From NCBI RefSeq assembly GCF_003334765.1, contig NZ_QOWT01000034.1: a stretch of 41,409 bases of DNA. The stretch is one strand, 5' to 3'. The position numbers and the translations under genes are program-made. The DNA is from Escherichia coli. Lineage in GTDB: Bacteria > Pseudomonadota > Gammaproteobacteria > Enterobacterales > Enterobacteriaceae. Shown in pieces: positions 1-404 of the stretch. Positions within the stretch are counted from its first letter, which is position 1, and every line of letters begins with the position of its first letter. The notes under the pieces were generated by a model. That model was not told the DNA's origin, ran no database searches, and worked only from the letters and a program-made list of their open reading frames with translations.

Positions 1-64
1 TTTTTCGTCTTGCGACGTTAAGAATCCGTATCTTCGAGTGCCCACACAGATTGTCTGATAAATT

Positions 65-76
65 GTTAAAGAGCAG
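65..76 (-). promoter_or_regulatory. boxA-like antitermination element of the rRNA operon leader
   Basis: Reverse complement of 65-76 reads TGCTCTTTAACA, the conserved rrn boxA core, downstream of the P2 promoter on the minus strand; the 16S gene itself would lie beyond coordinate 1. Confidence 0.6.
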
Positions 77-115
77 TTGCGACGCGGCTTTCAGCTCACT
101 GTCGCGAGGTGGCGT

Positions 116-143
116 ATATTACGCTTTCCTCTTTCAGAGTCAA
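116..143 (-). promoter_or_regulatory. rRNA operon P2 promoter (rrnD-type)
   Basis: Minus strand reads TTGACT (138-143), 16-bp spacer, TAATAT (116-121), then GC-rich discriminator; matches the rrn P2 architecture. Confidence 0.65.
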
Positions 144-224
144 CCCTGAATTTCAGGATTTTTTTCTCTTCGTTGTTCCGACCATCCTGTGAAGTGTTTC
201 ACGTTGTCGTCTCAACGGAGGCGC

Positions 225-252
225 ATTATAGGGATCCCAATTTTTTGCACAA
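225..252 (-). promoter_or_regulatory. rRNA operon P1 promoter (rrnD-type) with upstream AT-rich UP element
   Basis: Minus strand reads TTGTGC (247-252), 16-bp spacer, TATAAT (225-230) followed by GCGCCTCC discriminator; A/T-rich tract 253-300 consistent with UP element and FIS sites. Confidence 0.65.
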
Positions 253-404
253 GTATTTTTTTGATCTTTTTTTCTGTTTGTTGTTTTTTCACCCTTTTTG
301 CTGCAATCGCACACAAAACGGTGCTTTTTTGCATACTAAAAGACTTGCACAAGGCCAATAATGCCCCCAAAGTCATTAGTAAATCATTTATTGCTGAGGT
401 AAGT

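Follow-up and report, generated by a model that had tools for sequence, protein, structure and literature searches.

Identification of the rrnD control region and 5′ leader at one end of a 41-kb stretch of Escherichia coli DNA

Introduction

Textbook accounts of the Escherichia coli rrn operons cover their tandem P1 and P2 promoters, the UP element, activation by Fis, antitermination at boxA and processing by RNase III. P1 is the growth-rate-regulated promoter of these operons, and a control region of the E. coli type is recognized by three to five Fis sites on the upstream side of its UP element. Hirvonen et al. reportedly footprinted Fis on every one of the seven P1 promoters in 2001. A more distant parallel, also drawn from established knowledge, may be seen in the nut sites of phage lambda, which serve N-dependent antitermination; like the rrn leaders, they would combine, in nascent RNA, a boxA motif with a neighboring boxB hairpin, to be read by Nus factors. 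The rrn arrangement would differ from nut in its order of boxB, boxA and boxC, in having boxA alone as the key element, and in not involving the N protein.

UP elements are possessed by the rrn P1 promoters, among which rrnD P1 is the least Fis-dependent of the seven, with approximately 75% of its activity retained in a fis mutant (PMC4696680). The rrnD P1 promoter itself has already been dissected genetically with respect to its −10 element, P2 and the Fis-site region, and it was described as having a TATAAT −10 hexamer and as being activated by upstream Fis sites (PMC5110994). Here, we describe a stretch of E. coli DNA that begins with such a control region on its minus strand, and compare it with the rrnD and rrnB regions of K-12 and with an Rfam family that is annotated as a small RNA.

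Results and Discussion

Identity and genomic setting of the window

The window, which denotes the whole stretch of DNA analyzed (41,409 nucleotides of contig NZ_QOWT01000034.1, assembly GCF_003334765.1), contains no rRNA gene, and its assignment to rrnD rests on identity with complete genomes. Its positions 1–1000, when reverse-complemented, showed 100% identity to many E. coli chromosomes, among them K-12 MG1655 in its rrnD–yrdA region. The full window corresponds to NC_000913.3 3428832–3470240 except for six transitions, none of which falls within 1–404; base 1 is thus 3428832, and the ATG of yrdA at window 405 is 3429236. Of the 473-bp intergenic region between rrsD and yrdA (NC_000913.3 3428763–3429235), the 404 bp nearest yrdA show no base difference from window 1–404, and the window is distinguished from K-12 rrnD only in that it stops 69 nt short of the leader's end and lacks the operon that follows. 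The K-12 annotation puts the 5′ end of rrsD, a minus-strand gene, at 3428762, a distance of 69 nt leftward from base 1, and tRNA-Ile, tRNA-Ala and 23S follow downstream. The initial annotation, made without database searches, had proposed that the 16S gene is missing, so that the window begins inside the leader, and that this gene should appear within about 200 bp to the left on the minus strand. Both expectations were borne out, since the same 69-nt distance was found in eight inspected records, which include K-12 and six other strains spanning the range of identity. The sequence continuing leftward from base 1 is accordingly expected to contain ...TGAATACCAAG... and then 16S, and the adjoining 100 nt on that side are expected to read TGAATACCAAGTCTCAAGAGTGAACACG...AAATTGAAGAGTTTGATCATGGCTCAG, with the 16S gene starting at −69.

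A match to window 1–1000 was present in each of the 5,426 complete genomes of E. coli, with a median of seven places per genome, as expected from the part of this query that is common to the seven rrn operons. A single place covering at least 80% of these 1000 bases was found in 5,420 of the 5,426 genomes, and the unique part of the region (window 150–520) occurred once per genome with 96–100% identity. These figures bear on the idea that the sequence represents a truncated rrn promoter copy or an orphan one, left as a relic or created by an assembly break, which drives no 16S gene in the source genome. Such a copy would be in keeping with a window that ends within the leader where the seven operons are identical, which is a frequent break point of short-read assemblies. 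However, it has very little probability in view of the single place occupied in nearly every complete genome, the 16S gene carried at the same distance by all eight inspected records, and the nature of the window, which was cut at a fixed length from a K-12-like chromosome and shows only six differences in 41 kb.

We hence assign the minus strand of window 1–404 to rrnD of E. coli, as its promoter and upstream activating region together with the 5′ leader, with a probability of roughly 97%. Among the seven operons it is identified as rrnD by its divergent neighbor yrdA, by the G at P1 +1, and by an Ile/Ala tRNA spacer as in MG1655. This control region is already known, and its recovery here is an ordinary finding whose value lies in annotation: the window is fixed as the stretch from rrnD–yrdA to tufA of a K-12-like E. 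coli chromosome, and its start within sequence common to seven operons is explained.

The six differences from MG1655 are located at window 4105, 9661, 19884, 22135, 36758 and 37543, and their coding effects are, in this order, P209S in Smf/DprA, A53V in ArfA, synonymous changes in rpmC and rplB, D16G in GspO, and D118N in Bfr. The sequence around window 4105 is 100% identical in other natural E. coli strains. This variant and the differences from MG1655 together indicate a K-12-like strain and not the reference itself.

The name rrnD needs some care between K-12 derivatives. W3110 has an rrnD–rrnE inversion, so that "rrnD" denotes a different combination of promoter and spacer in W3110 and in MG1655. 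The spacer tRNAs beside the yrdA-linked 16S gene are those for Ile and Ala in MG1655, and rrnD was entered as a tRNA-Glu operon in a study of W3110 (Maeda et al. 2015).

Comparison with rrnB and architecture of P1

The features located in the window are listed in Table 1. All the elements that had been named for the minus strand at 65–252, namely a tandem P1/P2 pair with GC-rich discriminators and a boxA antiterminator, were located within 2 nt of this range. The only excess is at boxA, which reaches 2 nt past position 65. The P1 discriminator is GCGCCTCC, and ACGCCACC comes after the −10 of P2. When the region was aligned to the rrn P1/P2 regions, the row of the window was identical to that of rrnD among the seven K-12 operons.

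Table 1. Positions of the rrnD control and leader elements and of the neighboring gene yrdA in the window.
Feature	Window position	Strand	Elements or basis
yrdA, gamma-carbonic-anhydrase / hexapeptide-repeat protein	405..959	+	RefSeq annotation and ORF list
Fis-like site centred at −144	353..367		15-mer bounded by G and C around an AT-rich core
Fis-like site centred at −71	280..294		15-mer, first base G, last base (15) C, AT-rich core
P1 UP element, −40 to −60	256..276	minus	sequence numbered from P1 +1
rrnD P1 core	216..252	minus	−35 TTGTGC 252–247; 16-bp spacer; −10 TATAAT 230–225; discriminator GCGCCTCC 224–217 (8 nt); putative +1 G 216
rrnD leader transcript from P1, part in window	1..216	minus	NC_000913.3 identity and annotated rrsD 5′ end
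rrnD P2	108..143	minus	−35 TTGACT 143–138; 16-bp spacer; −10 TAATAT 121–116; discriminator ACGCCAC; putative +1 C ~108
boxB hairpin, GCGAC...GUCGC, directly 5′ of boxA	79..105	minus	folding
16S RNase III processing helix, 5′ strand, boxA and boxC included	20..77	minus	cofold with 16S trailer
boxA antiterminator TGCTCTTTAACAA	63..75	minus	invariant in 7/7 operons
GT-rich boxC-like element TGTGTGGG	41..48	minus	invariant in 7/7 K-12 rrn leaders

The P1–P2 region of rrnB, which serves as the paradigm, has the same UP element, Fis positions at approximately −71 and −143 (Fis-like sites in rrnD), a 16-bp spacer, TATAAT, and an 8-nt GC-rich discriminator. It likewise has a P2 with TTGACT that is followed by boxB, boxA and boxC, and its sequence from boxA to 16S is invariant. 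The two operons differ in the P1 −35 element (TTGTGC in rrnD, with 3/6 matches, and TTGTCA in rrnB), in the base at P1 +1 (G in rrnD and A in rrnB), and in the P1–P2 interval, which is 8 nt shorter in rrnD. From P1 +10 to boxB, rrnD belongs to the sequence group of rrnD, rrnH and rrnE, whereas rrnB belongs to that of rrnA, rrnB, rrnC and rrnG, and the sequence of the boxB stem differs between the two. Beyond −60, the upstream regions of rrnD and rrnB are unrelated in sequence; upstream of approximately −60, all seven K-12 rrn sequences are in fact mutually unrelated.

A generic sigma-70 scan flagged only P2 and missed P1, because the −35 hexamer TTGTGC fits TTGACA at only three of six positions. 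This single hit, as compared with 2.1 expected in shuffled sequence, would agree with a view in which promoter-like and boxA-like motifs had arisen by chance in the AT-rich intergenic DNA upstream of yrdA. The more specific patterns speak against it: TTGNNN-16-TATAATGCGCC occurs once in the window and 0 times in 100 shuffles, and the exact 13-nt boxA occurs once in 41 kb, where 0.06 occurrences were expected with up to one mismatch. Furthermore, blocks of the region are invariant across the rrn operons, including TATAATGCGCC in 7/7 K-12 operons, the P1 −10 with the start of its discriminator, CCCTATAATGCGCC, in the alignment of the seven K-12 upstream regions, and the P2 −35 block TTGACTCTG in 7/7. 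Together with the identity to annotated rrnD and the 16S gene 69 nt away, these observations have already refuted a chance origin, whose probability is practically nil. The P1 core from −38 to approximately +30 and the P2 core are also invariant in seven divergent E. coli strains, whose polymorphisms (substitutions and 1-nt indels) sit in spacers, A-tracts and the yrdA 5′ UTR.

The ninth base after the P1 −10 is G in rrnD alone and A in the other six operons. Initiation with ATP has been described for six of the seven P1 promoters, and an increase by GTP for rrnD P1 (PMC9239199). This published response and the rrnD-specific G place P1 +1 at window 216, a position that we infer from the alignment with rrnB and from the deletion coordinates of Gaal et al. 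(2016). The initial annotation had left out this operon-specific G, as well as the RNase III helix strand described below.

Upstream of the P1 core, the UP element comprises two A7 tracts, at window 262–256 (−40 to −46) and 273–267 (−51 to −57). The stretch AAAAAAATA at −46 to −38 (window 262–254) fits AAAAAARNR, the consensus of the proximal UP subsite that Estrem et al. are said to have defined in 1999. Window 256 (P1 −40), the last base of the proximal A-tract, is A in K-12 (AAAAAAATAC) and G in six of six other strains (AAAAAAGTAC), and both bases satisfy the R of this consensus.

Only two Fis-like sites passed the loose-consensus scan upstream of P1, and none passed near −102. Their centers at −71 and −144 would coincide with those of Fis sites I and III in the rrnB P1 promoter. 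The upstream activating region had also been described as abutting the start of yrdA. This holds roughly, in that the ATG lies at −189 from P1 +1 and the most distal Fis-like site is approximately 37 bp away from the ATG.

The positions and sequences given above come from the present analysis, while the binding of factors and the control by initiating nucleotide and ppGpp are taken from the literature and established knowledge. On this basis, the UP element would recruit the C-terminal domains of the RNA polymerase alpha subunits to P1, and Fis bound at the sites near −71 and −144 would raise P1 activity further. The weak −35 element, the 16-bp spacer and the 8-nt GC-rich discriminator would make the P1 open complex short-lived, and this instability would in turn confer sensitivity to the initiating nucleotide, which is GTP for rrnD, and to ppGpp/DksA.

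P2, antitermination signals and the RNase III helix

Gaal et al. (2016) deleted rrnD P2 from −107 to +2 relative to the P2 start and made P1 constructs that end at +1 (PMC5110994). From these coordinates, P2 +1 would be located at approximately window 108, which is 108 nt downstream of P1 +1; in control regions of this type, a P2 is expected at a distance of some 110–120 nt. P2 would supply the basal transcription of rrnD.

A perfect palindrome, CCTGAAATTCAGG, is located at window 145–157, just upstream of the P2 −35. On the plus strand it is followed by a T-run and was flagged by a scan as terminator-like, in which case it would face transcription antisense to the leader. The palindrome is common to rrnD, rrnH and rrnE and is absent from rrnA, rrnB, rrnC and rrnG, and it may belong to a UP-like, A/T-rich region of P2.

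Counted from P1, the full rrnD leader would have 285 nt, 216 of them in the window; counted from P2, it would have 177 nt, with 108 in the window. The last 69 nt of the leader lie to the left of the window. Directly 5′ of boxA, the leader folds into the boxB hairpin with a minimum free energy of −13.5 kcal/mol. Four sequence variants of this segment exist among the seven operons; each was folded separately, and all gave a hairpin directly 5′ of boxA, with stems that differ between the variants (GCGAC/GUCGC versus GCCGC/GCGGC). The z-scores of such a small hairpin are modest (−1.2 to −1.95) and serve as supporting evidence only. A column-wise analysis of boxB covariation across the seven operons was dropped, as one sequence group has its hairpin shifted by one or two alignment columns against the other.

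The sequence from ACTGCTCTTTAACAA in boxA to the end of the window is invariant in 7/7 K-12 operons, and beyond the window, up to 16S, the seven leaders are identical save for two single-base differences. This invariant part contains the GT-rich element TGTGTGGG, to which we apply the name boxC on the assumption that it is the element so called in established accounts of rrn antitermination.

When the rrnD leader was cofolded with a 68-nt 16S trailer, 49 intermolecular pairs were formed in a nearly continuous helix over window 77–20, which corresponds to positions −146 to −89 from the 16S gene, and the leader/trailer duplex had an energy of −67.5 kcal/mol by duplexfold. A transcriptome-wide study reported an RNase III cleavage site at 3428875 in the rrsD–yrdA intergenic region (PMC5371410). 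This coordinate is window 44, in the middle of the helix and 113 nt before 16S. The 49-pair helix and the location of this site indicate that the leftmost 77 bases of the window combine the antitermination signal with the 5′ strand of the stem for 16S processing.

Both the boxB hairpin and this long-range helix were obtained here by folding, and antitermination itself is known from earlier work. A nascent rrnD leader would thus carry boxB, boxA and boxC, with boxA nucleating an antitermination complex based on NusB/NusE, and this complex would permit rapid read-through of the untranslated operon by the polymerase. Later, the leader would pair with the 16S trailer, and cleavage by RNase III would release the 17S pre-16S RNA. 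All sequence features on which these activities of the promoters and leader would depend are present, with Fis represented by the two Fis-like sites.

The divergent gene yrdA and the clustering of rrn operons

The yrdA gene diverges from rrnD, and its ATG, preceded by a GAGG Shine–Dalgarno sequence, is so placed at −189 that any yrdA promoter must fall inside the rrnD upstream activating region. No candidate for such a promoter passed a standard sigma-70 scan, and a relaxed scan gave weak candidates only, the best of which is CTAAAA-15-AATAAT at window 336–362. Its AATAAT (357–362, plus strand), a weak −10-like hexamer, overlaps the Fis-like site centered at −144. A measured start site of yrdA was not found in the Cappable-seq and SMRT-Cappable-seq supplements under yrdA or coordinates 34289xx–34292xx, in tables that are possibly incomplete, and nothing on a coupling to rrnD was found in the literature mentioning yrdA. 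The proposal of the initial annotation that the divergent rrnD promoter may influence yrdA expression is a reasonable idea, suggested by the arrangement of the two in the sequence. Previous work has noted that the yrdA promoter region adjoins repetitive rrsD sequence, which leads to false positives in ChIP-chip, and that yrdA and yrdB form a convergent "excludon" pair.

An antisense RNA of yrdA with CATAAT as its −10 element was described by Dornenburg et al. (2010). A CATAAT hexamer is present within yrdA at window 558–553 on the minus strand, with TTGGTG located 16 bp upstream; it is directed toward rrnD P1 and lies at approximately −340 from P1 +1. This hexamer presumably represents the antisense promoter of Dornenburg et al. 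(2010). A scan of the minus strand between CATAAT and P1 found no terminator-like site.

Gaal et al. (2016) reported that the rrn operons cluster in a nucleolus-like body, and that deletion of the rrnD "Fis-site" region from −397 to −60 abolishes this clustering, namely the colocalization of rrnD with rrnG, which was left undisturbed by deletion of fis, lrp or hns (PMC5110994). In our coordinates, the deleted segment is window 613–276. The same deletion also takes out the promoter of yrdA, the initial 209 bp of this gene, and the antisense promoter at 558–553. One might speculate that the cis element for clustering is divergent or antisense transcription, or an RNA, from window 613–276 and not the Fis sites, and likewise that yrdA expression is tied to rrnD P1 activity by Fis sites common to both and by negative supercoiling upstream; we regard this proposal as unlikely. 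The part of −397 to −60 that serves rrn clustering and the coupling between yrdA and rrnD are the points of remaining interest at this locus.

The Ysr197 family and a spurious open reading frame

Rfam returned no match in window 1–404 at gathering thresholds. With permissive thresholds, RF02849 (Ysr197) matched window 295–53 over the full model (1–254) with 90.5 bits and an E-value of 3.5e-22; as the gathering score is 167, this denotes a homologous region that is not a member by the Rfam cut-off. This match, and a 78-aa "hypothetical protein" that PGAP places over the region in some genomes, would favor a stand-alone small RNA of the Ysr197 type, or a small protein, encoded here instead of or besides the promoter and leader. 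However, the conserved blocks of the Ysr197 model are the rrn control elements themselves, i.e., the P1 −10 with its discriminator, P2 and boxA, and the model starts upstream of P1 +1, reaching into untranscribed DNA. Ysr197 was reported to be strongly repressed in stationary phase (PMC4376681), as an rrn leader RNA would be. The blocks and the starting point of the model indicate that this family, labeled as an sRNA gene, is the rrn promoter/leader region of Yersinia, and evidently not a free-standing sRNA gene; in the window, the same blocks belong to the promoter and the rRNA leader.

The PGAP protein (WP_136511987.1) spans the rrnD upstream region and P1, and the K-12 version of its reading frame has 54 aa instead of 78 (window 212–376, minus strand). 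Since the frame and length shift with a 1-nt A-tract indel between strains, the 54/78-aa ORF over P1 is almost certainly spurious. A separate sRNA or protein gene at this position is hence exceedingly improbable, and the promoter and leader of rrnD are retained as the content of window 1–404. These two cases give reason for caution, as both ORF callers and Rfam can mislabel rrn control DNA. The sole Rfam match of the window at the gathering threshold is the Alpha operon ribosome-binding site (RF00140, 102.7 bits) at 13608–13719 on the minus strand, upstream of rpsM, as expected for the alpha ribosomal-protein operon.
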